Part shown: positions 4,557-58,459 of the stretch, piece after piece | Position numbering within the stretch: the first letter of the stretch is position 1 | How the letters are laid out: each line of letters opens with the position of its first letter | DNA from: Mobula hypostoma | Taxonomy: Eukaryota | DNA length: 64,000 nt | Direction: 5' to 3' | Assembly (NCBI RefSeq): GCF_963921235.1 | Contig: NC_086108.1 | Location: 69,752,001 to 69,816,000, forward strand | Notes under the pieces: generated by a model | What the model was told of the DNA's origin: nothing | What the model saw: only the letters and a program-made list of their open reading frames with translations | Databases searched by the model: none | Position numbers and translations under genes: made by a program

Positions 4557-4633
4557 CCCGTGATGCTGATGAGAGAGAGCAGTGGATTCATGCATTAGAA
4601 GAAACTATTCTACGTCATACTCTGCAGCTCAGG
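4557..4633 (+). CDS. OSBPL9: Oxysterol-binding protein-related protein 9, internal coding exon (C-terminal end of PH domain)
   Basis: tttacag|CC CGT...CTC AGG|gtgagt; 77 nt translating (A)[25 protein letters not shown], which matches the remembered human ORP9 sequence [26 protein letters not shown]; ends in phase 0. Confidence 0.95.
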
Positions 4634-6835: not shown

Positions 6836-8440
6836 GTGGTGCCATGGTAATGTAGTTGAGAGCGTGAAGCTATTCTGGCTTGGGGCTTTGGAATTCAGAG
6901 TTCAATCCCAGTGTCCTCTGTATGACCTCCCCATGGAATGTATAGGTTTTCTCCTGGTGCTCCGGTTCAGAACATAGAATAGTACAGCACAGTACAGGCC
7001 CTTCAGCCCACAATGTTGTGCCGACCCTCAAACCCTGCCTCCTATATAAGCCCCCACCTTAAATTCCTCCATATACCTGTCTAGCAGTCTCTTAAACTTC
7101 ACTGGTGTATCTGCCTCCACCACTGACTCAGGCAGTGCATTCCACGCACCAACCACTCTCTGAGTAACAAACCTTCCTCTAATATCCCCCTTGAACTTCC
7201 CACCCCTTACCTTAAAGCCATGTTCTCTTGTATTGAGCAGTGGAGCCCTGGGGAAGAGGTGCCGGCTATCCATTCTATCTATTCCTCTTATTATCTTGTA
7301 CACCTCTATTATGTCTTCTCTCATCCTCCTTCTCTCCAAAGAGCAAAGCCCTAGCTCCCTTAATCTCTGATCATAATGCATACTCTCTAAACCAGGCAGC
7401 ATCCTGGTAAATCTCCTCTGTACCCTTTCCAATGCTTCCACATCCTTCCTATAGTGAGGCGACCAGAACTGGACACAGTACTCCAAGTGTGGCCTAACCA
7501 GAGTTTTATAGAGCTGCATCATTACATCACAACTCTTAAACTATATCCCTCGACTTATGAAAGCTAACACCCCATAAGCTTTCTTAACTACCCTATCCAC
7601 CTAAGAGGCAACTTGCAGGGATCTGTGGGCATGTACCCCCAGATCCCTCTGCTCCTCCACACTACCAAGTATCCTGTCATTTACTTTGTACTCTGCCTTG
7701 GAGTTTGTCCTTCCAAAGTATACCACCTCACACTTCTCTGGGTTGAACTCCATCTGCCACTTCTCAGCCCACTTCTGCATCCTATCAATGTCTCTCTGCA
7801 ATTTTCGACAATCCTTTACACTATCTACAACACCACCAACCTTTGTGTTGTCTGCAAACTTGCTAACCCACCCTTCTACCCCCACATCCAGGTCATTAAT
7901 AAAAATCACGAAAAGTAGAGGTCCCAGAACAGATCCTTGTGGGACACCACTGGTCACAATCCTCCAATATGAATGTACTCCCTCCACCACCACCCTCTGC
8001 CTTCTGCAGGCAAGCCAATTCTGAATCCACCTGGCCAAGCTTCCCTGGATCCCATGCCTTCTGACTTTCTGAATAAGCCTACCGTGTGGAACCTTGTCAA
8101 ATGCCTTACTAAAATCCAGGTGGATCACATCCACTGTACTACCCTCATCTATATGCCTGGTCACCTCCTCAAAGAACTCTATCAGGCTTGTTAGACACGA
8201 TCTGCCCTTCACAAAGCCATGCTGACTGTCCCTGAGGAGACCACGATTCCCTAAATGCCCATAGATCCTCTCTCTAAGAATCTTTTCCTCCCACAGTCCA
8301 AAGACACACCAGTTAGTAGGTTAATTGGTCATTGTAAATTGTCCCATGATTATACTAGGGTTAAATTGGGGGTTGTTGGGGTTTGCTAGGCAGTGTGGCT
8401 CAAAAAGCCAGGAGGGCCTGTTACGTGCTGTATCTCAATT
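6836..8440 (+). mobile_element. V-domain (HE1-like) SINE split by a CR1 insertion
   Basis: tRNA-like head with gagttcaatccc B-box; V-domain-like ggttttctcctggtgctccggtt|ttcctcccacagtccaaagac continues across the insertion. Confidence 0.7.
6968..8287 (-). mobile_element. CR1 LINE ORF2 (RT) 3' portion
   Basis: LDFSKAFDKVPH, SGVPQGSVLGP, FADNTK and LVRPHLEYC motifs in ORFs 7601-8212 and 7028-7522. Confidence 0.95.
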
Positions 8441-12469: not shown

Positions 12470-13297
12470 TATTGTTGGCAGAATTTCAGATGGTGACGAG
12501 ATGGCGTACAGGAGCAAGATGTATCAGCTGGTTGAGTGGTGTTTTGCAGCAACAATGTCAATAAGAACAAATAACTGATTGTGGAGTTGAGAAAGCATAA
12601 AGCAGGGGAACACATACCAGACTTCATTGAGGGAAAGAGTGAGCAATTTCAAGTTTCTAGGTGTCAATATCTCTGAGAAACTATCCTGGGCCCAACATAT
12701 TGAAGCAGATATAAAGAAGGCATGACAGCAGATGTATTTCATTAGGAGTTTGAGGAGATTTTGTATGTCACCAAAGACACTTGCAAATTTCTACAGATGT
12801 CCTGTGGAGAGCATTCTAACTGTCTGTTATGGGTGGGCTACTGCACAGGATCAGAATGAGCTGCAGAGACTTGTAAGATTAGTCAGGTCCATCATGTGTA
12901 CTAGCCTCCAGAATATCATGTGCACTAGTATCCAGAACATCTTCAAGGAGCGATGCCTCGAAAAGGCGGCATCCATCATTAAGTACTCCCATCACCCAAG
13001 ACATGCCCTGTTCTCATTGCTGGCATCGTCAGGAGGTACAGGAGCCTGAAGGCACACACTCAATGATTCAGAAACAGCTTCTTCCCTTCAGTCATTCAAT
13101 TTCTGAATGGACATTGAACCTGTGAACACCACTTCACTACTTTTTTATTTTTATTTTTGCACTACTTATTTAATTGAACTATTTAATATGTAAATACTTA
13201 TTGTAATTCATGTTTTTGTCTGTTATGTATTACATTGTACTGCTGCCGCAAAGACAACAAATTTTGCTGATGCCGGTGATACTAAACCAGATTCTGA
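12470..13297 (+). mobile_element. Rex1/Babar-type LINE 3' fragment
   Basis: MYFIRSLRRF..KTLANFYRC.VESILT and HHPRHALFSLL motifs; 3' tail ..taaaccagattctgat. Confidence 0.8.
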
Positions 13298-13535
13298 TGC
13301 ATATTCTTCTGTCAAACCACTTCAGGAGCTTGAAGCTTTTCATTGTCCTCATTGTGTCTGTTGCAGCCAAGTACTTAACATCCAGTTCAAATACCAGCTT
13401 GTGGTGAACATTTTTGTATGTCTACTCCATACAAAAAATCAACATTCACCATCACTCTGCTTTGTGTCCCTTGGGTAATTTGTAATTTATGTGCTGCCAC
13501 ATTTTTCATTGCTAAGCATGTTTGGTAGTCTATTC

Positions 13536-14038
13536 TGTTGGATGTGACTATTTAATTCTTAGATTAGACTTTCATTGACATTTCTTTGGCAGTTTAAAAA
13601 CAAATTATCTGCTTGTATCTTATATAATTGTGTAAAAGTGACTGATCATTCTGTTTCTTAATGTCTGGAGTATGTTCTGTATATGCAAGTTTAATATTTC
13701 TCTAGTGGTTATGCAAAGTATACTTGTAGTAAGCTCTGGAAACTTTTGTTCTGCGTCATTTGAATGATGACTTTCTAATTGGTTAACTCTTATCTATAAA
13801 GTTAAATGGAATTGTTCCTTATCTATGGGTGTAAAATAGCTAAACACAAAGCAGCATCATCTTATTCTTAGTTCTTGGTTCCTTTGTCCCTCTGTTAGCT
13901 TAGTAGACATCTATCACTGTCTGTTCTGTCCACTTCCTTTGTTCTATCAATGCTTAAGAAAACAATTGTGAAGTAGCAAGTTTTGTGCCTCTTTCTTGAC
14001 TTCTAAAAGAACCTTCGATTAAAACATCAGAATCAAAA
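13536..14038 (+). repeat. ERV 5' LTR
   Basis: Starts TGTTGGA; aligns by eye with 21264-21588 plus 22465-22630; followed by the PBS. Confidence 0.85.
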
Positions 14039-14040
14039 TG

Positions 14041-14060
14041 TGGCATAGTCGGGAGGATTC
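14041..14060 (+). promoter_or_regulatory. ERV primer-binding site (tRNA-Ser)
   Basis: tggcatagtcgggaggattc versus TGGCGTAGTCGGCAGGATTC, the complement of the vertebrate tRNA-Ser 3' end as remembered; 2 mismatches. Confidence 0.8.
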
Positions 14061-14314
14061 TGAAGTTTAGGACTCAGAACATTTGAAGACAAAGGGGCAG
14101 TTTTTGACACCCAAACAAAAGGGTAAGAACTTCCACTCTTCCTCTGTTGCCTGAGAGAAAAATGGGTTCTGCTTTCGGATATCAGATGGAAATTAGGATT
14201 GAGCACTGCTGCATTGCTATTTAAAAGGGAACAAGAAAATATCGGTTGCAAACTACTCAGCTGTAACTTATTCAGTTACGATCTACTTCAGTCGTACAAC
14301 TATCTATTTCGGTA

Positions 14315-15854
14315 CAGGTTTCCCCCGCCATCCGAAGGTAGAGCATTCCTATGAAACGGTTCGTAAGCCGAAATGTCGTAAAGTGAAAAAGCAATTACTA
14401 TTTACTTACATGGGAAAATTTTGTGAGAGTTCGCAGACCCAAAAATAACCTACCAAATCATGCCAAATAACACATAAGACCTAAAATAACAGTAACATAT
14501 AGTAAAAGCAGGAATGATACACAGCCTATATAAAGTAGAAATATATTTCCACAATCATTACTGAACTGTTCTCCGTAGCAAAAATCTCACGCAAGCGCCG
14601 TTGGCAGAAAATCTCACGCAAGCGCTGTTGGCAAGAACATTCTCTCCAATAACCTTTAAGCTATGAAGCTGCCAAATCATATCAAATAACACGTAAAAAT
14701 ACACAGCCAATATAAAGTAGAAATAATGTATGTACAGTGTAGTATCACTTACTGGAATTGGGAAGACAGCGCCGAGCACACTGATGATGGTGTGTTTGAC
14801 TGAGTCGTCGCAGGCTGGGTCGTGCAGTGGCCCCCACCCTCTGATACATTGCCGTGAAGCACGCAGGGATCCAGCGGTAGCTGGGAGGCATCCAGCACAT
14901 CTTTAAGAAAAAAGCCGAAACAAACATGCTAATTAATTAGGTGCTGCTGGGCATGTAATTGTTGGCCCAGATCAGTGCCAATTGCATCGCCTTTGATCTG
15001 GGCCGACAATTACGTGTTGGCGGCACCTAATTAATTAGCATGTTTATTTCGACTTTTTTCTTAAAGATGTTCTATGTGCCTCCCAGCTACCGTTGCATTC
15101 TCCGCGAATCGATATCTGTCCGTGGCCTGGTGTTTGGGGTGGTGGGACACTGGGGTGTCATCTTGTCGTCTGTTTCCATTAGAGCAGGCAGCTCATCTTC
15201 GATGCCCACCTCGATGTCGAAGGTCGAGGTTCGTCGTCTGCTGTGGCTGATGTGGAAGGCTTGCTTGACTGCTGAGCCTCGCGCATTTTTCTATCACACA
15301 GTTCTTTAATAAGGACTCAAACCATCCTGCAAATATCCCCTAAACCGACATACCCTTTCAAAATTAAAGTCGTACTTTATCGTTACTCATCAGTTTCGAT
15401 TGTTATCCTTTTTTCTTCCAATTGCATCAGCTCTTCATCTGTCAGTTCTTGGTTGTGGGATGCCAAACCTCTTCAACATCATGTTTGTCAGCTTCCACAA
15501 GCCAAACTCATTTTGTCCTTACTTCGTTCACCACGATCAAAACGCTTAATTATGTCTAGTTTTACACTAAGTGTAACACCCTTACGAGCTCTTTTAGGCT
15601 TTTCCGATACCATAGAACTCATCTTGCAAACGGCTGTTCACAGGCTCATGTTAAAGCAATGCTGTTTCGAATCCCGGGCAGAGCGGCTGCTTGGGGCGCG
15701 TGCTGCCTTTTATCGCGCGCTGATTTTTTATTGCACACTGCTTTTTTTCATAACAGTGAAAACACCTTCTGAAAGCGAAAACAGGGTACTAATGTAGGTC
15801 TTTCGTAACAGTGAGGTTTCGTACAGCGAACATTCGAAAAGCGGGGGACACCTG
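14315..15854 (-). mobile_element. Tigger/pogo-like internally deleted DNA transposon inserted in the ERV leader/gag
   Basis: TIRs caggtttcccccgc / gcgggggacacctg; TA TSD; N-terminal HTH remnant RARKGVTLSVKLDIIKRFDRGE joined to an acidic C-terminal remnant. Confidence 0.85.
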
Positions 15855-16559
15855 TACCTAGTAAAAATATTGGTTCTGTATTCTATTTGGTTGCTGGGTC
15901 AATCAATTTGGTTACAATTATTAAGATTTTGAGATTGCGGTCAAAGTGATGAAAAGTACATACAAATTAAGATCGATTCAAAACAATGGCCAAAGTTGTG
16001 GAACAGACTAAAAGCCCTTACCTGAATAAAATATCTGTTTGATATAGTTTACCAACAATATTATGTTTATTAACAATGATAGAGACAGTTTAAAGAGTCT
16101 AAAGAGCAAATAATTGCATTAAGCAAGCAAGCGAAAGAACAACACAGTAATTTATTTGAAGTGCATTATGCAGAGCTCGGATGCAAACTAAAACAAGCTG
16201 AGAAAGCTCAGCCATGACTTCAAGTGCATGACTCTGCAAGTGCGCTGCTAGTGATGTTATTGCTGGTAGTCCACTCTGGGAAACACCAACTTCTGAAGCT
16301 GTGTCGAGGAATTGCAGCCCACATCAAACAGCCCCCAGAGACAGCGACACTATCTAAGCACCGAGGAATTACTGCTGACAGTGGACAGTCTCCTGAGACA
16401 GTGATACCATCTGAACTCCAAAGAATTACAGAATGAACATGGCATGGATTCTACAGCACCCCTAGTGACTTGAGTAAGACCGATAGTGATAGAACAATAG
16501 GATGGACAGCTATGTCACAGCCTTCTCCAATAAAGATCAGGAGAGTGATGACACACAGG

Positions 16560-18900
16560 ACTGAAGCTTAAACCATTGTTAATCAATGTATTGATCCATC
16601 AACTGTTTTCAATGTCCTGAGGCCATCGCATCAGTTGATTACAATTATTGATGTGCCCAGTGGATTCTCGTCACTAGCACCTGAATGTCAACTGTGATTG
16701 ACTTTTACAGTTGATTGTCAACAATACCAGTGGGCAAGGTAACCACAAGGGCTCCACAACAGTCCCACTGTCTTATCGTTTGAGAGATTTGGCAGCCATT
16801 GATTTGACTATTATATAATACGTGGCTAATGTCCTGATTGCATCTGAAGCTGCAGACCAGCATGAACGAGATATGCTTTATTTGCTCTATTATCTATTCT
16901 CCAAAGATCCCAAAGCAAATCTACATGAGGCACAATTGCAACAAGAGGAAGTAATTTGCCTGGGTCAGAAAATTTCCCAAGGTAGGCAGGAAATCACTGA
17001 GAATCTTGCAAAAGCCTATAGGTCAGCAAAACCTCCTACAACAGTACAGCAAGTCCGATCACTTCTGGGTTTGTGTAGCTGCAACAGACCATGAGTTGAT
17101 CTGTATGCCCAACTGCTCAACAATCTATGAAGGCCAGTAAGTGCTCAGATGACCCTAGTAGTTTTAATGACGAACGAGTGGAAACGTTTCAAACTTTAAA
17201 GGTGATATTGTGCACTGCTTCTGCATGGGGAGTTCTTGATACAGTTAATTTACCTCAGCTGTCAATGAGAAACATGTGAAGGCAGTCTTACGTCAACAAC
17301 AGTTTCCTGTTGGTTATTACTCTGCCAAAGATTTGTACACTGGCTCCTCAATGATTGAGAGAGGAATTTGAATGATAGTTTCTGAAACTGAAATGCTGCC
17401 ATGAGGAAGCATGGCTCCTGGTGTCTCTGTTTGACAGGCAGAGTGGAAAGCTTTGATTGAAGCCTGTTAAGTTGGTAGAAGGAAGATCAGTTAATATAAA
17501 CTGATTCTCAATATGCTTTTGGAGTTTTTCATGATTTTAGAAACTTATGGAGGCAGAGGATTTCTTAAGGCTGTAGGAACTCCAATCAAGAATGGCCAAC
17601 TAGTATAAGAACTTACTGATGTCATACAGCTGCCCTCAGAAGTTGCTGTATTGAAATGTAAAAACCACTCCAAAATGACCACAATGGAAAGCTCTAGAAA
17701 TGCATTTGCAGATGAACTTGTAAAAAGGACAGCTTAGGAAGGAGTGAAAGTAGACCCAGGAAGGTGTACAGTGAATCTGACAACTGGAATTAAGGAAACA
17801 ATTTTGAATTCTGTATCACAGACGAACATACAGATATCTGAGAGTTGCAAGATCAGTGCTCCTGATAGGGAAAGTGGTTCTGGATGGAGAATGGTGGGAT
17901 GTTGTAGCCCCAGCTAAGTTGCTTCCTTATCAGGCACAGCAAATACACTCCTTAGGATCCATTAGAATGGAAAAGATGACCGACAGATTCTCCCAACGAT
18001 GTTGGAATCCAAAGCTAAGGGCACAGCTTTGACCAATGCTTGAAAGGTGCATGACATGCCAAAAAATAAATCCTGGAGCAATGGGGAAAAACTACCACAA
18101 TTAAGGGTTCTTGCCCTATCTGGTCTATTTTTACACTTACAAGTGGACTACATTTTACCAAAGTGTCAAGGATACTGAGATGTACTGGTAATAGTGGACA
18201 AGTTTTCAAGATGGGTGGAAGCTATTCCAGCAAGAAAAAGCCCCTACCACACATATAGCAGAAACTCTAAACAAAGATTATATTCGTAAATGAGGAATTG
18301 CCATGTCACGTCGGCTCTGACCAAGGAATACACTTCATTGGAGCTGTTTGTCAGGAATTATGTCAACTGATGAACATTGAATAGTCTCACTGTCCACATC
18401 ACCCACAGTCATCAGGACAAGTGGAACAAATGAATAAAACCAACAACAGCGATTGACTAAGTATCATGAGGAAGGTGTACCATGGCCTATGGCTCTTCCT
18501 ATGGTCTTAAGTAGCATCAGAGCAACCCCAAACAAGAAAACTAAGCAGAGTCCACTCGAGGTGGTAACAGGGTGTCCTGTGTCATTCCAGGAGCCCTCAA
18601 TCTCAGAGCGGCTGATATACTCATAGCAGACAATTTAGTTAACTGTTTTGTGAAATTAACCCAAACTGTCCAGTCTTCTCAACAGATTTCTGCTGTTTGG
18701 AGTGAAACAAACAGAAGGGACACACCCTGAATCCTGATGAGTGGGTCCTGATTAAGAAACCACTTTAGGAACCATTGGGAACTGGATGGAAACGTCCTTA
18801 TCAAGTGCTGTTAATTACTAACTCAGTGCAGATGGTAGAAGGTAAAAGTAAGTGGATACACACCAGCCGCTGCAAGAAAGCTAAAGTGGCACCCATTGAG
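16560..18900 (+). pseudogene. pol: ERV pol remnant (RT, RNase H, integrase)
   Basis: TIIDVPSGF (16641), QYQWAR*PQGLHNSPT (16722), YVANVLIAS (degenerate YVDD, about 16819), TDSQYAFGVFHDF (about 17500), LQVDYI (18137), VDKFSRWVEA, PQSSGQVEQMNK (18403), PYQVLL, WIHTSRCKK; many stops and frameshifts. Confidence 0.9.
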
Positions 18901-19019
18901 GACAAGTGCTGTGGTTGTTGTGCTTATAAAATCTAGGCCATAGTGCCTACACTGCTGGGCTACAGTGAGCAAATTACAAACCAGCCAGAAGACTACAACC
19001 AAGTTAACAACTACTAGAC

Positions 19020-20100
19020 ATAATGAAATTTATTCTAATATGATTTGTTGTTGTATTTTTGCTAATTTTCCCCACATAATGTGCCAGTAGAGATGACTCA
19101 TAATATGTACTTGCAGGTATCACATGAATTTGCTGATGTTGTTAACGACTTTAGCTGTTGGGTATGTCAATATATTTTGCACACTTCACCAATGCTAAGC
19201 ATTCCGGCAGATTTAGAACAAACATGCACCCTCTTTGTTAAATGTTCCAGCAATGGTGATGTTGACATTATGCCTATGATTCATTATTCTCAAGTAAGAC
19301 ACAAATATACAACGGTCATGCCCCCACATACAGTCTTGGATCATTTACAATATGTAAAAATAATCAGCATGATTTGGGGAATATCATATCTAATCCTATT
19401 CATGTCTTATCCTGGGATATATCCACATTGAATATTCATAACAATATAAATATTTTCATGTGTTTACTATAAAAGCTACCTTTTACTTGAGTTCAGAAGG
19501 TACCATTCCTGTAGGGCATAATTTATGCAATTACACTCTATATTGTCCTAAATAGAGTAATGACTCTGGAATTTTCATTGATGATCAGAAAATTATTACA
19601 ATTCAACAGCACTCCTGTCAAGTAATAATAAATGATCTAAGTTCATGGAACAATGTGTACTTTGTGTGGAAATGGAGCCTGCACCTCTCTTCCACATAAC
19701 TGGTTGGCATTTTGTTATTCAGGCTATGTTTTTCCTGACATGAGGTATACACACACTTTACCTCCCTAGTCTAGAAGTAAATGAGATACTTCAGAAAGAG
19801 ATGGTTTTGCATTGATTTTATTTACATGTTATGGTGTTGCAAGGAGTATAGGAGAGATTTAAAATGTTGTTGCAGCTTTAGAAAGAGCACACAATGACTC
19901 CTCTGAAGTCTTGGGAAAAGTAACAGAAATAGTCACTATGCATAAGATGGTTCTTCAAAATCGTATGGCATTAGATCTTCTCTTAGCAGTTCAAAGGGAA
20001 ACGTGCAGTGATAAGCAAGGAGTGTTGTATTTGCATACCTGACAAATAATTTGGCTGATAATATTCATAAAGAAGCAGCTAAAGTACATCAATATGATAT
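19020..20100 (+). pseudogene. env: ERV env remnant (gamma-type envelope)
   Basis: CWVC at 19156; immunosuppressive-domain LQNRMALDLLLA at 19953 followed by a frameshifted TC..VISKECCICIPD (CX6CC-like) motif. Confidence 0.85.
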
Positions 20101-20512
20101 TAACAAAATATTTCAAACTCGCATGTGTGCCTACAAATCTGCCTAACCATGACATAATCCTATAAATACCTTGGGAAAATATATACCTTCTGATATTTCA
20201 TAACTTAAGTCATGACATAATTTCAGTAATAAAATGAGGGAAAGCCACTAAACTTCATTCGTCCCTTTACTGAACTATTTCCAAAATCTATGGACTCTTC
20301 ATCTCATGTTCTCGATATTTATTGTTATTGTTATTTTGTTCTTTTGTATCGCACAGTTTGTTGTCTTTTGCACATTGGTTGTTTCTGTTCTGTTGGGGGT
20401 AGTCTTTCATTGATTCTGTTGTGTTTCTTGTATTTACTGTGAATGCCTGCAAGAAAATGATTCTCAGCGTTGTATATAGTAGTATGTATGTACTTGAAGT
20501 AGCTTTTGATTG

Positions 20513-21168
20513 CAGTGAATCCCGGTTAATTGGGCTATCACTTTATCGGGGAAGCTGCTTATTTGGGCCAGCTCTTAAAGCACAAAGACTAATCAAGAAA
20601 GTTGCCGGATTTCCTTCATTTATTTGGGACACTCTGCTGCTTAATTGAGACAGGAGACTGTTACCACTTTCGAACTAGTGTTAGACACTGCACCATTTTT
20701 ATATCCTGTCAGTTGAGTATGCTTATATCAAAAAGCAGTGATGTCTGTCACTGATAGTTGCCAAGAAATAAGCAGTAAGACAATTCAGAACCAGATTGCT
20801 CACTGCGGATTCAAACATTCAGACTTGGAGATGCCAGAAATTGCTGAGAGTGAAAATGAAAATTATTTCATTCCTTCAAATTGGGAACTATAAAGAATCT
20901 GAAGGTATGAACAATCATCTTAAATGTTACAATGAAAATATAGATTTGAAGGATGCAATCATTAATAGTATTGTTTGAAGACAGTCCATTATTTACATGA
21001 GGTGTCTGCACTGATTTTGTTTGAGGCAGTGTACGCTGAATTGCTCCTGTGGTTTATTTAATATACCTTTTTAACTATTTCCATTAAACTTTAACTAATT
21101 GCAGCAGCTTGTTTAATTGAGCCAAAGTGTACTGGTGCTTATGTGTCCCAATTAACTGGAATCCACTC
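20513..21168. mobile_element. Tigger-like MITE inside the ERV, preceded by a LINE 3' tail fragment (about 20285-20500)
   Basis: TIRs cagtgaatcccggttaattggg / cccaattaactggaatccactc followed by TA. Confidence 0.7.
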
Positions 21169-21263
21169 TATTTTATACTTAATGTCAATACCACAAGTTT
21201 TTCTGCCACTGAATTTTCAGATGTAATGATTCTAAATGTGTGATTCAGAATCAAAGGGGGTAT

Positions 21264-22630
21264 TGTTGGAGCTGATTGTTTCATTCTTGTTGTTTAATTG
21301 ATATTTTCTTTGCAGTTTAACAATTTAATATTGGCTAGTGTTTTATGTAATTACTTGTATACAAGTAACTGCTCGCTCTGCTTCCTTGTCGTATCCAAGT
21401 ACCTGTATGTGTTTAATATGCCTCTAGTGGTTAAACAAAGTGCAATTTTGGAAAGCTCTGTAGGCTTCTCTAGTGCATTGTTTGAATAATGACTTTCTCA
21501 TTGGTTAATTCTATCTATAAATTTGAATGGAATTTTTCCCTATCTGTGGGTATAAAATAGCAAAGCACAAAGCAGCACCATCTTCTCTTAAACATGAGGA
21601 AATCTACAGATGCTGGAATTTCAAGCAACACACGTAAAAGTTGCTGGTGAATGCAGGACAGGCCAGGCAGCATCTCTAGGAAGAGGTACAATCGACGTTT
21701 CGGGCCGAGACCCGTCGTCAGGACTAACTGAAAGAAGAGCTAGTAAGAGATTTGAGAGGGGAGGGGGAGATCCAAAATGATAGGATAAAACAGGAGGGGA
21801 AGGGATGGAGCCAAGAGCTGGACAGTTGATTGGCAAAAGGGATATGAGAGGATCATGGGACAGGAGGCCTAGGGAAAAAGAAGGAAAAGGGGGAGGGGGG
21901 AAGCCCAGAGGATGGGCAAGGGGTATAGTAAGAGGGACAGAGGTGAGAAAAAGGAGAGAGAGAAAAAGAAAGTGTGTATATAAATAAATAACGGATGGGG
22001 TACGAGGGGGAGGTGGGGCATTAGTGCAAGTTTGAGAAGTCAATGTTCATGCCATCAGGTTGGAGGCTACCCAGACGGAATATAAGGTGTTGTTTCTCCA
22101 ACCTGAGTGTGGCTTCATCTTTACAGTAGAGGAGGCCGTGGATAGACATATCAGAATGGGAATGGGACGTGGAATTAAAATGTGTGGCCACTGGGAGATC
22201 CTGCTTTCTCTGGCGGACAGAGCGTAGGTGTTCAGTTTCGCCAATCACCTGTCCAGCTGTTGGCTCCACCCCTCCCCCTCCTGTCTTCTCCTATCATTTC
22301 AGATCTCCCCCTCCCCCTCCCACTTTCAAATCTCTTACTAGCTCTTCTTTCAGTTAGTCCTGAAGAAGGGTCTTGGCCGGAAATGTCGACTGTACCTCTT
22401 CTTAAAGATGCTGCCTGGCCTGCTGCGTTCACCAGCAACTTTTATGTGTGTTGCCATCTTCTCTGAGTTCTTTTATCTCCCTCTTTGCTTAGTAGACATC
22501 TATCAATGTCTGTTCTGTCCCTGTTTTCTTTGTTCTATAAACCCTTAATAAAACAATCATGAAGCATTAAGTTTTGTGCCTTTTTCCTGACTTCTGAAAG
22601 AACCTTTGATTACAACGTAAGAATACAATA
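21264..22630 (+). repeat. ERV 3' LTR, interrupted by a Penelope-like element
   Basis: Preceded by PPT aaaggggg (21253-21260); starts TGTTGGA; TATAAAA at 21551; AATAAA at 22547; ends gaatacaata. Confidence 0.85.
21589..22453 (-). mobile_element. Penelope-like element fragment with inverted terminal repeat
   Basis: GIY-YIG C-terminal EHLRSV..VATHFN..RLGSLQPDGMN on the minus strand plus an inverted copy of the terminal repeat; TSD ccatcttctct (21578-21588, 22454-22464). Confidence 0.9.
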
Positions 22631-24464
22631 ACTCAGGCAATATCAACTGCATTTCCATCACCAAATAATTAGATGGTCCAGAATCTTCTCCTAGTCTGTT
22701 GGTCTACATGGTAAATCCAAACTCAGTTTATATGCATCTGTCACTGTCAACTTGATGGTAATAGCCAACACTGTTTTCAGGGGCAAGGTCTTGGGTGTGG
22801 AAATACTGTTGGACTATTGTAATGGACAACTCTCGAGGTTGTGGAGTCTATTATAACAGCTACTTGAAAAAGAATCCAAACTCAGTATCTTTCAGTATCT
22901 CAGTTTATATATTTCCTTGAGACCTAGAAGGAGGTAATTTGGACCATTGACTTTCCCAGCTCTCCAAGCATCAATTCCATGTTTCCCTGTGACCCCTCTC
23001 CAATGTCCATTAACCTCTAGTGAGTCTCCTGTCATCTACATACACCAGACATTTAACCAGCAGCTTTCCTAGCAAGAAACAGGAGCACCTAAGGAAACCC
23101 ACATTGAAAATGAACAAATTGCACAATGACCCCACCCCAAAAAAAATTATAATTGAATTTGAGTCACTGTAGCAGAGTGAAATTAAAGACTGTGTGAAAT
23201 CAAGCATACCTTTTTTCTAATTAGCATCTTAATTTATTCCTGTTGAATTTGTTGAAGATTTTGAAAGAGTTTATGCAGAACTGCATTTGTGAAATTTGTA
23301 GTCCGTTTAATTGTAGGAAGATTTAGAGATGAGGCAGAACCTGCTGTTCATTACTTTGTAATTTCTCAGCTTAGCTGTTGATGGGAATGCACTAACTTGG
23401 CTCTATCATGAATTCTGGGGTGTTCTTACAAGTGCACATGAAAGACCTTCCATGCACATCATCCTTTCAAGGTTTTACTCTACACAAACCAAGGTTGTGT
23501 TTTCTGTAACTTTCAAGGTTAAAATTCAAAGTAAATTTATTATCAAAGTATGTGTAGTATATATTACTATATATAACCCCAAGATTAGTTCCCTTGCAGG
23601 CATACTCAGTAAATCCACAAAACATAATAGAATCAGTGAAAGACTACACCCAAAAGGACAACCAACCAATGTGCAAAAGACACCAAACTTTGCAAATACA
23701 AAAGAAAAAATAAATCGATAAACAATAAATATTGAGAACATGAGATGAAGAGTCTTTGAAAGTGAGTCCATTGGTTGTGGGAACAGTTCAGTGAAAGGTT
23801 GGTTTGACTGAAGCCTTTAATGTATTAAGACAAACCACAGTGATAAACATGAATTATTTTTGATTTAGGAAGTATGGTCGAAAGACAAGAGCATGGCCTT
23901 GCAGAAAAAGATAATATTGTGTCACTTCTATAGTAGGTTGAAAGTTTTTTAACCAACTGCATTAGAACTAGGAGCAGGAGTAAGCTATCTGGCTAGTTAA
24001 GCCTGAAATGCCATTCAATAAGATCATGGTTGAACTGGCCATGAACTCGGCTCCACCTTCTCGTCTTTCCCCATACCCTTAATTCATGCATTATGCAAAA
24101 ATCTATTTAACTGTGCCTTAAATATTGATGTAGCTCATACTGCTGCCTTGGGCTACCTCAATAAATATATTTTTCCTAATCTCTGTCCTAAATTCTGCTC
24201 TATCTTGAAGCCATGTCCCCAATTAAAGGGAGGTAACCCCAGAATCAGTATTTGAAGTGAGGTTAGCTGTGATGTCATTGAGTGACAGAAGGCTCAAGCA
24301 GGCTAATTGCTTTGTTATGTTCCTCTGCTCTCCATTCCTGTGTTTTCTAGGGCAAATCAGGCCTATTATGGCTCTTTGACAAAGTACTAATGCTCAGATC
24401 CACACCTTGTTTTGTATTTATCCCCTCAAAGGTAATCAAATACCTGTTAAATTCTTATTTAATA

Positions 24465-27669: not shown

Positions 27670-28623
27670 CCCTGGACAACATATTTTTTAAAAACGCAAA
27701 GAACAGGAATTCTGCAGATGCTGGAAGTTCAAGCAACACACATCAAAGTTGCTTCAGTTAGTCCTGACGAAGGGTCTCGGCCTGAAACTCGACTGTACCT
27801 CTTCCTAGAGATGCTGCGTGGCCTGCTGCATTCACCAGCAACTTTGATGTGTGTTGCTTAATATTTTTTAAACTGTTGCTTCCTCAGAATTTTTTTTTGT
27901 TTTTGATAGACTGCTTGAGGCTGATCTAGTAATTTCAGACTACTTGTATTACATAGGACTTTGGAGAATCAAGAAATTGACTTATATAATACATTTAGTT
28001 GCATTATGGTGCTGACACTTTGCAATAGTTCAACTAACTAAAAATGTTTGATGAATTTTGTTTGTACTCTGTGTCTGAGGCTTCTAGGTTAAGTGTGCAA
28101 CAATAATCAGCTAGTATCGATGGATTCCAGTTGCCCTGATACCATTTCTTTTTGACTCCAATGTTCTGGTGAAACCTTTCACCATGTTCGCCACTGACAG
28201 CGCCAAGGTTTGCAGGGAAGAAGTCTAAATGGGAATGCAGAAAATGAATCTTTAGTGACATGTTGCACTTCATGGTTTTGCATGTTTGAAGCATGTTGTC
28301 AACCAGCTGCTCTGTCGTTGCCAAGAAAATTTGCAACAAAATCCTTGAATGCCTTCCATGGAATTTTCTCCAGTCCCACTAGAATCTTTTTGAATTGCCT
28401 GTGATTGATGACCTGTTTGATTTGTGAACTAACAAAAATAACTTCCTTAATCTTGGCATCAGTTATTCTGACTTGAATTATGAATTGAGAAAAAAAAAAC
28501 AAATATAGTTGATTTTTAAAAAAATGGTGCGTGTTAGGAAAATTTCATGGTGATTTTCATCAGCCCAAAATCCATAAGGCACACCCAAAAGTATCTAGGA
28601 AGCAAAACCCTTGTCCAGAGTTG
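27670..28623 (-). mobile_element. DNA transposon remnant, possibly Sola-type
   Basis: MSLKIHFLHSHLDFFPANLGAVSGEHGERFHQ...WNPSILADYC; imperfect inverted ends ctggacaa..ttgcttcct / aggaagcaa..ttgtccag; superfamily assignment from memory only. Confidence 0.55.
27693..27860. mobile_element. Miniature Penelope terminal-repeat insertion
   Basis: Inverted pieces of the Penelope terminal repeat; TSD atattttttaaa (27681-27692, 27861-27872). Confidence 0.8.
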
Positions 28624-30249
28624 TACCTGCCTCACTCGGTAGCACTTACATCCACAAGGATTAGGTGTTTTGAGAGGCTGGTGTTGAAACATATCAATTC
28701 CTATCTTAGAAGTGACTTAGATCTGCTCCAATTTGCCTGTTGGAACAACAGGTCCACAGCTGATGTCACCTCATTGGCTCTTCACTCAGCCCTGGAACAT
28801 CTGGACGGCAAAGATGCATGCATCAGGATGCTTATTATCAACTACAGCTCAGCATTCATCCCCTCAAAACTAATCAATGATCTCCTAGACCTTGGTCTCA
28901 ATAACTCCTTGTGCAATCACAAATAACTGTTTATTAAGTATGCCCGCAAAAAAAAAGAATCTTAGGGTTGTATTTGGTGACGTACTTTTGTTAATAAATT
29001 TACTTTGAACTTTGACTAGCATTGTAAGCAGATTCACAAACAGCCTGAATGAAAGGGTCTGTTGCATTTAATATCCAAGCATCTTCCAAATAGAAAGCAA
29101 CACACATTAAAGTTGCTGGTCCCCCTCTTTTCCTTCGCTGCATCGATGACTGCATTGGCGCTGCTTCCTGCACGCATGCTGTGCTCGTTGACTTTATTAA
29201 CTTTGCCTCCAACTTTCACTCTGCCCTCAAGTTTACCTGGTCCATTTCTGACACCTCCCTCCCCTTTCTAGATCTTTCTGTCTCTATCTCTGGAGACAGC
29301 TTATCCACTGATGTCTACTATAAGCCTACTGACTCTCACAGCTATCTGGACTATTCCTCTTCTCACCCTGTCTCTTGCAAAAATGCCATCCCCTTCTCGC
29401 AATTCCTCCGTCTTCGCCATATCTGCTCTCAGGATGAGGCTTTTCATTCCAGGATGAGGGAAATGTCTTCCTTTTTTAAAGAAAGGGGCTTCCCTTCCTC
29501 CACCATCAACTCTGCTCTCAAACGCATCTCCCCCATTTCACGCACATCTGCTCTCATTCATCCTCCCGCCACCCCACTAGGAATAGGGTTCCCCTGGTCC
29601 TCACCTACCACCCCACCAGCCTCCGGGTCCAACATATTATTCTCCGTAACTTCCGCCACCTCCAACGGGATCCCACCACTAAGCACATCTTTCCCTCCCC
29701 CCCCTTTCCGCAGGGATCGCTCCCTACGCGACTCCCTTGTCCATTCGTCCCCCCCCATCCCTCCCCACTGATCTCCCTCCTGGCACTTATCCTTGTAAGC
29801 GGAACAAGTGCTACACATGCCCTTACATTTCCTCCCTTACCACCGTTCAGGGCCCCAGACAATTCTTCCAGGTGAGGCGACACTTCACCTGTGAGTCGGC
29901 TGGGGTGATACACTGCGTCCGGTGCTCCCGATGTGGCCTTCTGTATATTGGCGAGACGCGACGCAGACTGGGAGACCGCTTTGCTGAACACCTACGCTCT
30001 GTCCGCCAGAGAAAGCAGGATCTCCCAGTGGCCACACATTTTAATTCCACATCCTATTCCCATTCTGACATGTCTATCCACGGCCTCCTCTACTGTAAAG
30101 ATGAATCCACACTCAGGTTGGAGGAACAACACCTTATATTCCGTCTGGGTAGCCTCCAACCTGATGGCATGAACACTGACTTCTCTAACTTCTGCTAATG
30201 CCCCACCTCCCCTTCGTACCCCATCCGTTATTTATTTATATACACACAT

Positions 30250-30267
30250 TCTCTCTCTGTCTCTCTC

Positions 30268-30317
<50 letters not shown>

Positions 30318-30321
30318 TCTC
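30250..30321. repeat. (CT)n microsatellite within the Penelope repeat
   Basis: Imperfect CT dinucleotide run. Confidence 0.9.
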
Positions 30322-30547
30322 CTTTTCTCCCTCTGTTCCTCTGACTATACCCCTTGCCCATCCTCTGGGTTCCCCCCCACCTTGTCTTTCTCCCCGGACC
30401 TCCTGTCCCATGATCCTCTCATATCCCCTTTGTCAATCACCTGTCCAGCTCTCGGCTCCATCCCTCCCCCTCCTGTCTTCTCCTATCATTTTGTATCTCC
30501 CCCTCCCCCTCCCATTTTCAAATCTCTTACTAGCTCTTCCTTCAGTT

Positions 30548-30583
30548 AGTCCTGAAGAAGGGTCTCGGCCTGAAACGTCGACT
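30548..30583 (+). ncRNA. Minimal type I hammerhead ribozyme motif (Penelope-associated)
   Basis: AGTC-CTGAAGA-AGGGTCTCGGCCT-GAAA-CGTC-GACT: intact core, stem I AGTC/GACT, palindromic ACGT in place of stem III. Confidence 0.8.
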
Positions 30584-31299
30584 GCACCTCTTCCTAGAGA
30601 TGCTGCCTGGCCTGCTGCGTTCACCAGCAACTTTGATGTGTGTTGCTTGAATTTCCAGCATCTGCAGAATTCCTGTTGTTTGACTTCCAAATAGAAATAT
30701 TTGCTTAACTTCAGTAAATGCCTTTTGACCTGCTGGAGACAGCATTATTCTATTTCTCCAGGCATGTCCTATAAATTTATACTGACTGGATGTGCTAAAT
30801 GTTAGCTAAATATACCGTGACGATTCTATTACTATTTGCTATCCTGCTCCCTTGAGTCACTGCAGTTACGTGTGACTGCATAACTTAATTGTTTTGCATT
30901 TTAATGCGTAGTTGTATTCAGAATTAGTGATATCTAACAACGACTTAATTGCAGTTATCAACACTGGGTATTTGAACAAAAAGGTTAAATGATTTTCAAA
31001 GAGAACTCCGGCGTTAAAGTTACATTTCGACTCCTAAATCTTTACTGTGTACTTGATTCTACAAGGACCACGATAACAATTGAAAATTATAAGGTATGAG
31101 ATAATGCAAAATGCATTGCAAAATCCAGATAAAATACATCCAAACTCTGCAAGTGTGCCAAGGAATTTCGAAAGCTTTTTTAAAAATAAATTTGTCCTTT
31201 TATTTGTTGCAATAAAATTGGCAATTTTACACGTAGTGTGTTTGGTCGCAAGAATTTTTTTTAAAAATGTTCTCCTTCCTCAAATGTAAACAAATAATG

Positions 31300-33275: not shown

Positions 33276-36200
33276 AAGTGTGTAGGAGTGATCTTTAATT
33301 TTACTTTGCAAGGACACAATATTGTTCTGGCCAGTAGTTAATCCATAATGAAGGGACTGCACTATGAAACAATTTCAGTACCTCTACTGTGATATTTAGT
33401 ACATAAATAAATGCTTTTGTGTATAGTATAACCAGCAGGATTTTTATTTGAGGAAGTGCGATCAATGATTAATTTCATCATGCAATGATTATTGCTTTGG
33501 CAAGAGGACTCTAATCATAATTCCAGAATTTGGGAGAATGACTTTCAATTGTGAAATATCTTTTATGGTCTTAAATCTAATTGATTGTTCTGGAATTGGT
33601 CATAGTTATAAGCTTTTTGATCTAGGATGTCTGTTAGAATGTGTGAACTAATTTTCTAAAGTTGCAATGATGTTAGAACAAATGTTGGCATCTAGTGCAT
33701 TATTGTAATAAATACAAAATTAGGAAAGGATAGAGCAAATGGAATATCCCTCACTAATCCATTTGCTTACAAAATTTGGGTTATAAAGCAAGCATGTCAA
33801 TTTTTCTTTCACATATAGTGTCACATATAGGATTTTTGTGTGGGGTTCCAGTTCCTCAATTTATGCAATGGAAGGAGGTCTTTAAGTTGTAAGCTTTCCA
33901 CATAGATCCTTCAGTGTATATCTGAGCATATGTCCTAGACCTTGAAATCAGCCAGTTTGCAACATTCATTCAGGGATGGCTCCTTGTTTTGGAAGACCAG
34001 CAGGTTTAGGACTGACCAAGTCCAGCTTGTGCCATATTGACTTCTATAATAGTTGCTACAATCTGTGCTCTTCAGAACTGCTTTTAAAGTTCAAAGTAAA
34101 TTTATTATTAAAGTACATATATTTTACTATATGCAACCTGAGATTTGTTTTCTTGCGTGCATACTTATTAATTTCAAAAACCATAATAGAATTAATGAAA
34201 GATCGCACCCAACAGGACAAACAACCAATGTGCAAGTACAAAAGAAAAAAAGAAATAATAATTAATACATAAGCAATAAATATTGAGAAAGTGAGTCCAT
34301 AGCTTGTGGGAACAGTTCATTGATGGGGCAAATGAAGTTGAGTGAATTATCCCCACTGGTTCAAGAGCCTGATGGCTGAAAATAATAACTGTGCCTGAAC
34401 CTGGTGATGAGGGGCCTGAAGCTCCTGTACCTCCTTCCTTATGGCAGCACCGAAAAGAGAGCATGGTCCGTGATGCACAACTGTCAGGATGTACCCTGGC
34501 AAAAACCCATGCATCCCTCTCCAGATCATCTTGGGAAATGGAAGATGGTCTCATCTTCACCATATGGGACTTGAATGTAAAGTGTTGTGGCATTGTATCT
34601 CTGTGCATGAAGAATTTGACAGATATGGTCCTTTCACAACCAGCTAAATAAGATTTTGATGCTTTTCTAAAGTTTTGCTCATAAGACATTACAATAAATG
34701 ACTGACAGTAAAAGCATTGAACAATTTGTCAGGCTCTACCACAATGTATGTTTCACAGCAACAAGGCTAGATCAGTCCTTCAGGGTCAGAGAGTATATTG
34801 TGACACTTGCTGTTTCAAACACCAAGGTGTTCAGGGTCAGACACCCTGAGCCAATAGGCTGGTCCTGGACTTATTTCCATTTGGCATAGTTCGCATATTG
34901 TTGTTTGATTGTTTCTGGTTTTTGTATTGCTATATTTATGCTCTATTCTAGGTTGGTGCGGCTGTAACAAAACCCAATTTCCCTCGGGATCAATAAAGTA
35001 TATCTATCTATCTATCTAAGCTTAGGGTCCATGCATACATTGATCCAGACACTTACAAAAATAGCCTTCAGGATATGGATCTTGTTCAATACATGTCCTC
35101 CACTCCACTTTCTCTGGAGGTTTCTACATTATGTTTCTGTGCTTGCAGTCCTTTTTCATATTGCAGTGGGAAGAAAAATGTTTGGGATGAGGTATTGGCC
35201 ACCTCTACACCATGCTTGTCAATGCTATTTGCACTTCTCACCTAATGACCAGTTTCTTCTCCTCTCCCCCCCCCCCCCAACTCAATGCCAATTTTTGTGA
35301 GGGGGGAATTGTATTCTGTATAATTGGCTGAATTCTCCATCTGGCTCTTGCTGCATGCCTAGTTCCTTTGAATCATATCCTGAACAACCTCAAGGATTAG
35401 GATCTGATGATACAGGAAACAAAGGACTGGTCCAAGCTGACTGCCGACCCTGATGTGGTAGAAGGAATGCAAGAGGGAGGGAGAATTACTGATCTATTCA
35501 GGGAGAATGTAAAATGGTATTTAGATTATATGTTAGTGGGATCATCCAACAGCCATGTGGGTAGAACTTCAAGATAACTGAGAAGCAATCACTTTGCTAT
35601 TGGCCCCCCAGTTATCAATGGAAATTCAACGAACAGATGTGTGCATACATCACAGAAAGGTGCAGGAGCAGTAAGGGGGATTTTAATTTTAATTTTCCAA
35701 GTGTTAACTGGGATTGTCTTGATGCAAGGGCCCTGGATGGGGTAGAATTTGTTTAGTACATCCAAGAAAATTTTCAAAAGATGATGTTTAGGTAGTCCTA
35801 CTAGAGAGAGGCAATGCTTGATCTTGTCTTAAGAAATGAAGTTGTGCAGGTGATAGAAGTGCTGGCAGGGAGCACTTTGGGAACAGTAACTATAATTCTT
35901 AAAGTTTCAAGATAGTTATTGAAAGGGATATGGTTGATAAGTTACAATAAAAATAAATAATACAGAAAAAGGAATAGCAAGATAGTATTCATGGACCATT
36001 CAGAAATCTGATAGCGGTGGGGGGGGGAGGTGCGGGGAGAAGCTATTCCTGAAATGTTGAGTGTGGGTCTTCAGGCTCCTCTGCCTCCTCCCTGATGGTA
36101 ATAATGAAGAGGGCATGTCCTGGGTCCTTAATGATGGATGCCACTTTCTTGAGAAACTGCTTTTTGAAGACATCCTCAGTCATGGGAGGCTTATGTCCAT

Positions 36201-38113: not shown

Positions 38114-40021
38114 CAGTTGCAAGAAAAAGTTTGTGAACCCTTTGCAATTACCTGATTTTCTGCATTAAATACTCAGATAAGGTGGTCTGATATACATCTA
38201 AGTCACAATAATAGATAAATGCAATCTACCTAAACTTATAACACACAAACCTTAGTACTTCTCGTCAGTACTAAGTACACCATCTAAACAATCAGTCTGG
38301 GTTCGAAAAAGATTAGATGAAATTAGATTAGATTATGAGGACACGCAGTCCTCTTTTGTTGTCATTTAGTAATGCATGCATTAAGAAATGATACAATTTG
38401 TTCCTCCAGAATAATATCACAGAAACACAAGACAAACCAAGACTAAAAAAACTGACAAAAACCACATAATTATAACAAATAGTTACAACAGTGCAAGCAA
38501 TACCATAATTTGATAGAAGAACAGACCATGGGCATGGTAAAAAAAAATCTCAGTTTCTCGCAAGTCCCATCATCTCACGCAGACGGTTGAAGGAAGAAAA
38601 CTCTTCCTGCCATGAGTTTCCAGCGCCGCAAACTTGCCGATGCAGCATCCTGGAAGCACCCTCTGTGTGTGAGAACCCCTGAGGTAATGCCTTCTACAGA
38701 AGCTATTTGGAGTCACATGTTCCAATCAATGAGATGAGATTGGAGGTGTGGCTTGGAGAGGTGTGCTGCACTATGAAAAAGACACATAAAGTCAGGTTAC
38801 TGACAGGGCCTGCCCTTCTCAAGTAAGGTCTGATTATGTGCACCATGCTTCGATCAAAACAACTTTCAGAGGACCTTAGAAGAAGAATTGTAGAGATGCA
38901 TGAAGCTGGAAAAGGCTACAAAAGCATTTTTATGGACCTGAGTTTTCATCAGTAAGAGAAATTGTCTGCAAATGGAGGACATTCAGCACTGTTGCAACTC
39001 TCCTTAAGTGGGCATCCTGCAAAGATCACACCAAGAGCACAACATGCAATGCTGAAGGAGGTGAAAATGAACCGAAGGGTAACAGCAAAAGATATGCAGA
39101 AATCTCTAGAATGTGTTGAAGGCTCTGTTCATGTGTCCACTATAAGAAAAACACTGAACAAGAATGGTGTTAATGGAATGATACCACTGAGGAGATCACT
39201 GCTCTCCAAAAAAAAACTTTGCTGCACATCTCCAGTTTGCAAAAGACTATCAGGGTGTTCCACAATGCTTCTGGGGCAATGTTCTGTGGATAGATGAGAC
39301 AAACGTTGAACTTTTTTGCAGAAATGCACTTCACTATGTTTGGAGCGAAAAGGACACTACCAAAACCTCATATTAACTGTGAAGCATAGTGAAGAGCATC
39401 ATGGTTTTGGGAACAATTGATTTCAAAATTGTTTCAAGACATTTTACAAGAGAATGTCAGGGTAGCAGTCCGTCATCTGAAGCTTAATAGAAGTTGGATG
39501 ATGCAACAAGACACCAATATGAAACACAAGAGTAAATCACAGCACAATGGTTTAAAAAGAAGAAAATTTGTGTTTTGGATTGGCTAAGTCAGAGTCCAGA
39601 CCCTACCTGAATTGAGATGCTGTGGCATGACCTGAAGAGAGCTGTTCATGCAAGATATCCCAGAAATACTGATGAACTGAAACAGTACTATATGGAGGAA
39701 TGTTCTCTAATTCCTCTTTGCTGTTGGGCAAGTCTGATCAGCAGTTACAGGAAACGTTTGGTGGAGGTTATTGCTGCTGAAGAGGGTTCTGCCAGTTATT
39801 AAATACAAAGGTTCACATTCTTTTTCCAGCCTGGACTGTAAATGATTGAACAATGTGTTCAATAAAGACATGAAAAGTACAATTGTTTGTTTGTTATTAG
39901 TTTAGGCCAATTGTGTTTGTCTTGTATTATGACTTAGATGAAGATCAGACCACATTTTATGAGTAATTAATGCAGAAAACCAGATAATTGCAAAGGGTTC
40001 ATAAACTTTTTCATGCAACTC
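38114..40021 (+). mobile_element. Tc1 DNA transposon with long TIRs and a disrupted transposase (38845-39802)
   Basis: TA|cagttgcaagaaaaagtttgtgaaccc ... gggttcataaactttttcatgcaact; MLRSKQLSEDLRRRIVEMHEAGKGYKSI, MQQDT..KH and SQSPD..IEMLWHDLK motifs; a truncated retroelement is inserted at 38311-38660. Confidence 0.9.
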
Positions 40022-41578: not shown

Positions 41579-42557
41579 TATATCAGAACTTGTCAGTATT
41601 TCTCACCAGAGATGTGATGTACTCTGCCAGCATGCGCTTCAACCGAAGAGAGCATCTTTCAGCTGATGCCAATGGGACAAGATGAACTTTCACACATTCC
41701 TGGTTTACATTAAAAGTATGTGAGAAATCAGCTGTCATGTAAATGTGTTTTTTTTAGACGTGTGTGCGTGTGCGTTTGAGGCTTTTTGACATTAACTTTA
41801 ACATGCTTTTGCTTCACTAGTTGGTGCAGACCTGATGGGCCAAAGGACCTCTTCCTGTGCAGTACATTTCTGTATGACAGGTCCTAGCTGATTTTTCATA
41901 TGTCAGGCATTCACACACATTCAGTGATATTAACAATTTTGACAACTTGTGAGTCTTGGGGTTGCAGCAGTACCAGTTGTCAAAGCCTTTCTGTGAGTAC
42001 TGTCACTTACTGACAGATCCTACACTCCTCTCTGCCATGATATTACAGAGCATGTGCCCATATTGTCGATTGTCTGAAAAAGAAAATTCTCTTGCGTACT
42101 ATGGCAATTTTGAGAAGAGCTTATCATTAATTAATGAATTAGTAGCAATAATTATGAACTATTTTTAAGGAAGAAGGATGGGTTCTGTTGCTTATTTATG
42201 TGTATTGAGTATTATTAATAAAACTATAATAGATAAATATAACAATAAAACTATAAAAGAGAAAACAGATTGAAATAAATGAAACATTTTAGAAAACCTG
42301 TTCAAAGATTAGCAATATTAATCTTTTAAAGATTTGGCAGATGAATATGTGGCTGAGGAATCGTTTAGGAGGCAGGGTTTTCGATTTCTGAATCATTCAG
42401 ATCTTTTCCAGGGAAGTTATAATCTGTACAAAAAGGGCAGGTTACACCAGAACCCAGGGGAGACTAATATCCTTGTAGGCAAGTTTGCTTGATCTGTCTG
42501 GGATGGTTTTGTCGTCGGGGGGAGGGGTAGGAAATAGAATGATAGGGCTAAGAATGG

Positions 42558-54049: not shown

Positions 54050-54145
54050 GGTTCTGAAGCAGGATTTGTTCCAAGTGTACAAGATTTTGACAAGAAGCTT
54101 GCTGAAGCTGATGCCTACTTACAGATTTTAATTGATCAACTGAAG
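54050..54145 (+). CDS. OSBPL9: OSBPL9 next coding exon
   Basis: tttttgtag|GGT...AAG|gtaatt; 96 nt, [32 protein letters not shown], matching remembered human [32 protein letters not shown]; phase 0, compatible with the 4557-4633 exon. Confidence 0.95.
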
Positions 54146-58445: not shown

Positions 58446-58459
58446 ATTTTTAGAAGTGT

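Follow-up and report, generated by a model that had tools for sequence, protein, structure and literature searches.

The 64,000-nucleotide stretch of the ray Mobula hypostoma analysed here (contig NC_086108.1, positions 69,752,001 to 69,816,000; hereafter the window, whose internal positions are used throughout) takes in two consecutive exons of OSBPL9 and the 49.4-kb intron between them. Within this intron, in the sense orientation of the gene, positions 13536-22630 hold a decayed class I provirus with two long terminal repeats (LTRs) of about 500 bp and a gamma-type env. It is very probably the inert fossil of a class I retrovirus that combined an epsilon-related pol with this env. Both exons lie on the forward strand and have AG/GT borders. 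The upstream one (4557-4633) encodes the end of the PH domain and matches at 25/25 amino acids; the next one (54050-54145) is identical to Mobula, Hemitrygon and Hypanus at 32/32. Together they give 57/57 identical residues in Mobula hypostoma, M. birostris, Hemitrygon and Hypanus, and one to six differences in each of 13 other taxa compared. The window holds no further OSBPL9 exon. An earlier reading made from the letters alone (the sequence-only reading) had placed the element in a probable intron of a cartilaginous fish: the exons on both sides establish the intron, and their identity to myliobatiform rays makes such a ray the most likely host.

Without four later insertions the provirus measures about 5.8 kb, of which 4.8 kb lie between the LTRs, and all its parts are on the forward strand. 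The 5' LTR (13536-14038) opens with TGTTGGA and carries a reverse CCAAT at 13778 and TATAAA at 13795; the position of its polyadenylation signal (13956) reads AAGAAA. The 3' LTR is in two parts, the first (21264-21586) with the same TGTTGGA start, a reverse CCAAT at 21500 and TATAAA at 21516, and the second (22455-22630) with AATAAA at 22547. The CCAAT and TATAAA motifs sit at corresponding places in the two LTRs, which are 80% identical over 480-485 columns (blastn gives E 1e-47 for one half and 5e-39 for the other). Over 480 columns there are 55 transitions and 39 transversions, giving a Kimura two-parameter (K2P) distance of 0.230 +/- 0.025; a second alignment of 485 columns gives 0.233, or 0.215 without 15 CpG-context columns, and the observed/expected CpG ratio of the provirus is 0.16-0.21. 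The strong divergence previously judged by eye is borne out in these alignments. The primer-binding site (14041-14058) begins two bases past the 5' LTR, is complementary to tRNA-Ser (AGA/TGA) at 16/18 positions, and includes a TGG for pairing with the terminal CCA of the tRNA. A search pattern derived from it, designed with tRNA-Ser already as the guess, hit 112 loci, of which 18 yielded ARAGORN calls, 19 tRNAs in all (18 Ser, 1 Met). Since 16 of the 19 calls match 13/15 positions of the body of the site, the primer is taken to be tRNA-Ser. A polypurine tract (21253-21260) ends three nucleotides ahead of the 3' LTR. Every part of the order claimed by the sequence-only reading (LTR, primer-binding site, pol, env, polypurine tract, LTR) has been located, including the shared TGTTGGA starts.

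Little is left of the 5' half of the coding region. A first part of the leader (14059-14312) follows the primer-binding site, and a leader or gag remnant (15857-16577) contains a 57-nt tandem duplication (16305-16418) whose copies are 70% identical. Pfam and protein searches found no capsid, zinc knuckle or protease in 15857-16577, and the stretch from the primer-binding site to the reverse transcriptase (RT) gave no match at E<=0.05 against 10 gag-bearing sequences; one loose alignment of Labeo pols extended into it. With insertions removed, about 1 kb remains between primer-binding site and RT. Such a length cannot accommodate gag, protease and the RT start, whose absence is probably due to deletion. 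Most of gag, the protease and the RT start therefore appear to be deleted or unrecognisable, which refines the earlier statement that gag and protease could largely not be recognised.

The pol pieces are colinear by tblastn from 16578 to 18909, in the order RT, RNase H, integrase, and env follows. The RT remnant (16578-17329) starts about 230 codons into reference pols, and has no aspartates at the YxDD position; past it, about 0.4-0.45 kb of the connection region has been lost. The RNase H remnant (17375-17737) is found by tblastn and by Pfam (RNase_H, E 0.0015). The integrase remnant (17886-18909) retains the zinc-binding part, the core and a C-terminal domain of the murine leukaemia virus (MLV) type (Integrase_H2C2 E 4.9e-5, rve E 7e-4, MLVIN_C E 2.4e-6). 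Ten single-frame pieces make up pol, with 9 stops among them and about 9 frame changes. Word-based protein searches with one RT and one env piece found no match, a weak test given how decayed these pieces are.

Among 1.84 billion proteins, phmmer gave 530 matches at E<=0.001. The best is the pol of walleye epidermal hyperplasia virus 1 (WEHV-1; E 1.2e-23) and the second-best a Heterodontus protein, XP_067892312.1, to which the RT remnant is 46.7% identical over 120 aa. This horn shark protein (P0002 in our set) is annotated as a 'transposon opus' pol, yet it groups with class I and is the first-branching member among those sampled. The annotation of this closest protein, and the 11 Gypsy-type pols among 53 long phmmer matches, would favour a Gypsy/Ty3 retrotransposon that had acquired an env-like gene. 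The structures point elsewhere: in the PDB, the 9 sequences that the RT piece matches at E<=1 are RTs of XMRV, foamy and MLV type, with no Ty3 among them, and integrase bears the MLVIN_C domain. Pooled identity is 24-28% to the Gypsy group and 29-46% to class I; within the latter it reaches 46% with the Heterodontus protein (over 136 columns), 38-39% with WEHV-1 and with a contig resembling walleye dermal sarcoma virus (WDSV), and 37% with a skate endogenous retrovirus (ERV). For the trees, each of the ten pieces formed a row of its own in the alignment with reference pols, and together they were constrained to one clade; fast searches used 38 (or 37) of 54 reference sequences, many of them unnamed, with one K02A2.6-like sequence from a pseudoscorpion in the Gypsy outgroup. 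IMG/VR supplied three loci and no MLV-like reference, and L003 was left out. In the tree of 38 references, the element pairs with the Heterodontus protein (Shimodaira-Hasegawa-like approximate likelihood ratio 98.7); the pair lies within class I (100) and splits off ahead of its other members (95.1).

Approximately unbiased (AU) tests of placement agree with a position in class I. Without the Heterodontus protein, Gypsy (0.021) and the gamma-like amniote/amphibian group (0.003), a proxy for MLV-like pols, are rejected, and positions with WEHV/WDSV (0.65), at the base (first-branching, 0.58), with the skate ERV (0.38), with a turtle-lizard group (0.16) and with a teleost group (0.06) are retained. 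With that protein included, the position as its sister is the best of 8 placements; the tests reject Gypsy (9e-5) together with three vertebrate groups outside class I (<=0.014) and retain WEHV/WDSV (0.25) and skate (0.26). A Gypsy/Ty3 identity is largely refuted by the AU values, the identities, the PDB matches and MLVIN_C, and we regard it as barely conceivable; the class I assignment made earlier holds against the very RT placement that could have overturned it. Three further pols (P0060, P0071 and P0078, one of them from Labeo rohita under the source name Gypsy-like) fall between Gypsy and class I. The epsilon-like affinity suggested for the element is compatible with the best match and with the retained WDSV/WEHV sister position, but the skate-sister and first-branching positions are also retained. 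The element does not belong to the genus Epsilonretrovirus, because its env is of another type and accessory genes are absent, for which the 4.8 kb of internal sequence leave no room.

The env remnant (19023-20200) has a hydrophobic leader, CWVC at 19156, a furin-like site that contains a stop codon, an immunosuppressive domain (ISD) at 19953, and a CX6CC motif whose CC, at 20023, is separated from its first C by a frameshift. In such envelopes the CxxC/CX6CC pair links the surface and transmembrane subunits. All three marks on which the gamma-type call had been based are present, CX6CC in interrupted form, and weak matches to TLV_coat (E 0.0065) and syncytin-2 (E 0.0062) accompany them. No membrane anchor was found after CX6CC, where the hydropathy of 19-mers peaks at <=1.41; the transmembrane region was likely lost in this copy. 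The remnant has no match at E<=0.05 in the 1229-aa env of a 12,708-nt contig (L002) that we take to be WDSV, and an Atlas search with the env open stretch found none at 0.9 or above.

Four nested elements interrupt the provirus, as many as the minimum proposed before. The first is a pogo/Tigger-like DNA transposon remnant on the reverse strand (14313-15856) with terminal inverted repeats, a TA duplication and a CENP-B_N match (E 0.022). Its CpG ratio is 0.88 against 0.16-0.21 in the provirus, as expected if it were much younger, and it is the youngest insertion among those dated. A short high-copy repeat (20246-20498) has further copies at 23558-23754 and 34108-34344. Next to it lies an element with 21-nt terminal inverted repeats (the TIR element, 20513-21168), and the 3' LTR is split by a piece of a retroelement (21587-22454, reverse strand) with inverted 219-bp arms and many copies in the window at 79-93% identity. 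We assign this last one to the Penelope-like elements; a fuller copy at 29683-30198 matches GIY-YIG at E 0.011.

By share of words, part of the internal region of the provirus is present in 20 of 24 listed sequencing runs. The share of words is about 0.9 in organism A, about 0.5 in B (by arithmetic, about 98% identity) and 0.06-0.15 in C to G. Four runs were aligned to 13250-21586, namely X9 (organism C), X13 (D), X14 (E) and X20 (G); organism F (0.06) and four runs guessed to be RNA, with 6-11% of words, were left out and carry no weight as evidence. In three of the four the junction between 5' flank and LTR is bridged by single contigs (X9, 13290-13789; X14, 13271-13746; X20, 13271-13785), each reaching more than 200 letters to either side at a depth typical of single-copy pieces. 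These organisms share the insertion at its 5' junction. Two of the nested elements can be ordered on contigs of these runs. The pogo/Tigger-like element is absent from X14 and from X20, where one contig runs from 14311 to 15854 and makes the two parts of the leader continuous; the X9 contig ends at 14311, the edge of the element. The TIR element is bridged at both ends in X14, and therefore inserted before the split from organism E. X20 contigs span both the leader-to-RT stretch and the loss in the connection region without extra sequence, so both deletions predate the split from G.

Over the listed pieces, differences number 147/2992 for C, 49/1136 for D, 338/4023 for E and 306/3859 for G, corresponding to K of about 0.051, 0.045, 0.090 and 0.084; probable paralogues were omitted from these counts (3/8 X13 records, with 77/528 positions differing, and 1/8 X20 records, with 27/204). 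The LTR pair is 2.6-2.8 times as diverged as the host is from organisms E and G, so the insertion is much older than either split. With the LTR distance and the four nested elements, this ratio vindicates the earlier view that the integration is old. Summed read depth is many times single-copy over pol and 60-280 times over the LTR end, values that are not copy numbers; the excess points to a multi-copy family.

The survival of this provirus over such a time could be explained by co-option, either of env as a syncytin-like or restriction gene in these live-bearing rays, or of the sense LTR as a promoter or polyadenylation site of OSBPL9. It has indeed been retained in sense, where intronic ERVs are biased to antisense (PMC1794541, in its accessible part); each LTR has a TATA box, the 3' one an AATAAA as well, and env keeps one open stretch of 121 aa. 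Yet env is broken by stops and frameshifts and has no detectable membrane anchor; it differs from run X14 at 50/564 positions (8.9%), the same level as the whole (338/4023, 8.4%); and four transposons have inserted, one of them in the 3' LTR. Co-option is therefore very improbable: as far as its sequence tells, env bears no sign of it, and no gene of the provirus is intact.

Several points weigh against a single, inert class I provirus at one shared address. The four-letter target sites, ATTC on the left (13532-13535) and ACTC on the right (22631-22634), agree at 3/4 positions only, a degree of agreement with a probability by chance of 0.075 for one register and about 0.21 for three; what had been called a near-perfect duplication stands as a 3/4 match, weak when taken alone. 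Both LTRs have clear TG starts, but neither shows a clean CA end at the register used. All Pfam matches, those to RVT_1, RNase_H, Integrase_H2C2, rve and MLVIN_C (E 2e-6 to 0.03) among them, fall under the curated cut-offs. The trees lack a true gammaretrovirus, ZFERV, SSSV and snakehead virus, and the decayed pieces may be drawn rootward. Run X13 covered the flank but gave no junction-bridging record, and the aligned region takes in the 5' junction, not the 3' junction or the Penelope-like insertion. Finally, the AATAAA of the 3' LTR lies in the sense of the host gene, and some effect on OSBPL9 transcripts is possible.

The weakness of the target-site match leaves room for a recombinant of two family members, whose LTRs would come from two insertions, so that their divergence would date the family and not the insertion. 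Large internal deletions and the many related copies in all four aligned runs would suit such an origin. On the other side, a 3/4 match is what 20% divergence would leave of a true duplication, the organisation is colinear, and X14 contigs continue from the TIR element through the polypurine tract into the 3' LTR, so that any recombination would predate the split from organism E. We hold a recombinant origin to be unlikely, and a single provirus to be the better account.

The age in years is poorly constrained, at about 50 to 230 Myr (million years) or more depending on the rate. At the mammalian rate of 2.2e-9 per year, K/2r gives about 50 Myr; at 0.5e-9, assumed for catshark in the accessible text of PMC10699275, 230 Myr; and at 2.2e-10, assumed in PMC4422223 (likewise accessible in part), about 520 Myr. 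This last value is dismissed as implausible, as it exceeds the split of cartilaginous and bony fish at about 450 Myr (PMC10787021); either the assumed rate is too slow for rays, or the LTR pair makes the insertion look older than it is. The rate measured in the epaulette shark, 7e-10, is given per generation and not per year (PMC10587355, accessible part), and recombination and unknown rates can mislead LTR dating (PMC5962544, accessible part). The ancestor of the pelagic stingray has been placed in the Late Cretaceous (PMC7614867, accessible part). If E and G diverged at about that time, the insertion would be Jurassic or older. It is possible, if doubtful, that the insertion exceeds 110 Myr (Jurassic to Early Cretaceous), predates the stingray radiation, is shared with distant batoids, and represents a deep class I lineage found only in chondrichthyans, horn sharks included. 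In that event the locus would compete with the placental ERV-L (104-110 Myr), or overtake it, as the most ancient provirus with both LTRs to be followed by orthology. It would also set a hard minimum age for the pairing of an epsilon-related pol with a gamma-type env, and serve rays as an internal clock of neutral change.

The history of the locus can be proposed as follows. A simple class I retrovirus would have infected the germ line of an ancestral ray, and a provirus primed by tRNA-Ser would have integrated in sense into the OSBPL9 intron, probably with a 4-bp duplication. Because env carried the CxxC/CX6CC pair and an ISD, the family probably spread by reinfection, as judged from what is known of gamma-type envelopes. 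By the time the lineages of E and G split off, this copy had lost most of gag, the protease, the RT start and a portion of the RT connection. Once fixed, the provirus would have decayed at the background rate, presumably under neutrality. The TIR element entered before the split from E and the pogo/Tigger-like element after it. Today the provirus is spliced out with the intron, encoding nothing.

The rest of the intron is nearly all decayed repeats. A second pogo/Tigger-like copy (44296-45925) is 82% identical to the nested one; since the nested copy postdates a split of about 8% divergence, the second probably belongs to an older subfamily. In the window as a whole, Penelope-like copies with the inverted-end arrangement occur at 29094-30694, 42479-43536, 51199-53217 and 63605-63732, and some Penelope-like copies keep RT and GIY-YIG frames of 170-225 aa. 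Further decayed frames of the window that we label transposase-like or LINE-like (long interspersed nuclear element) are found at 1692-2339, 7028-8320, 28034-28378, 38956-39297, 56408-62080 and 58965-59738. By eye, the two flanks of the provirus (13290-13535 and 22631-22950, reverse strand) resemble successive segments of a LINE RT of great age. As halves of one LINE they would imply a single insertion; tblastn, blastn, tblastx and Pfam gave no match to a LINE in either flank, and no search bore this reading out.

As a functional unit this is an ordinary dead provirus, and its kind is known from fish; what sets it apart is its age and its presence at the same address in related rays. Retroviruses of cartilaginous fish are dated by means of assumed rates and from young LTR pairs (0.024-0.033 in the accessible part of PMC4422223). 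This locus combines an LTR pair diverged by 0.23, a stable position within a conserved gene, orthologues and layered nested transposons, and the provirus could serve as a dating marker, giving a rate-free minimum age and a neutral rate across batoids. A literature search, with most subscription papers, Repbase and Dfam outside it, found no paper on ERVs of myliobatiform rays.

The closest sequence is the Heterodontus protein, but it has 247 aa, shares 136 columns and comes from a different host order. WEHV-1 and WDSV resemble the element in pol and are retained as sisters, whereas its env is gamma-type and not epsilon, and it lacks their accessory genes. The primer of WDSV is tRNA-His, that of the element tRNA-Ser. 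The skate ERV (XP_055501356.1) is also chondrichthyan and epsilon-related with an env, and is likewise retained as a sister. Two lineages of the elephant shark, CmiERV II and III, can be likened to the element by description, being chondrichthyan, epsilon-related and provided with env; LTR divergence in two complete CmiERVs is 0.033 and 0.024, seven to ten times below that of the element (PMC4422223). More widely, clade Mu ERVs span the jawed vertebrates (PMC6001957, accessible part). Class I epsilon-related ERVs with gamma-type env and no accessory genes have been described from amphibians and fish, including six cartilaginous fish (bioRxiv 10.1101/2021.11.23.469661, accessible text). This ERV-EA type resembles the element in having an ISD and CX6CC in env in place of an epsilon env, and no accessory genes. 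Its class I pol lies in an epsilon-related clade (Pol-LE.1, Pol-LE.2 or epsilon), a position with which the pol of the element is compatible, and its env has a transmembrane region, which was not found in the element. The uncharacterised lineage suggested by the sequence-only reading is thus of a kind already described, and may be new at the level of the family only. The accessible text on ERV-EA names no Mobula, Pristis or Heterodontus, and the type may include the same lineage, the comparison being by description. Its orthologous loci in cartilaginous fish are confined to Chiloscyllium and undated.

A parallel for the locus itself is the placental ERV-L orthologue, which as of 2017 was still the oldest orthologous provirus (PMC5962544). 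That element belongs to class III, lives in mammals and has a firm minimum age of 104-110 Myr, where the ray provirus has no calibrated minimum (PMC3758187, accessible part). Like it, the provirus in OSBPL9 keeps two LTRs, is traced by orthology and shared nested elements, and has an LTR divergence far above that of the species that carry it.

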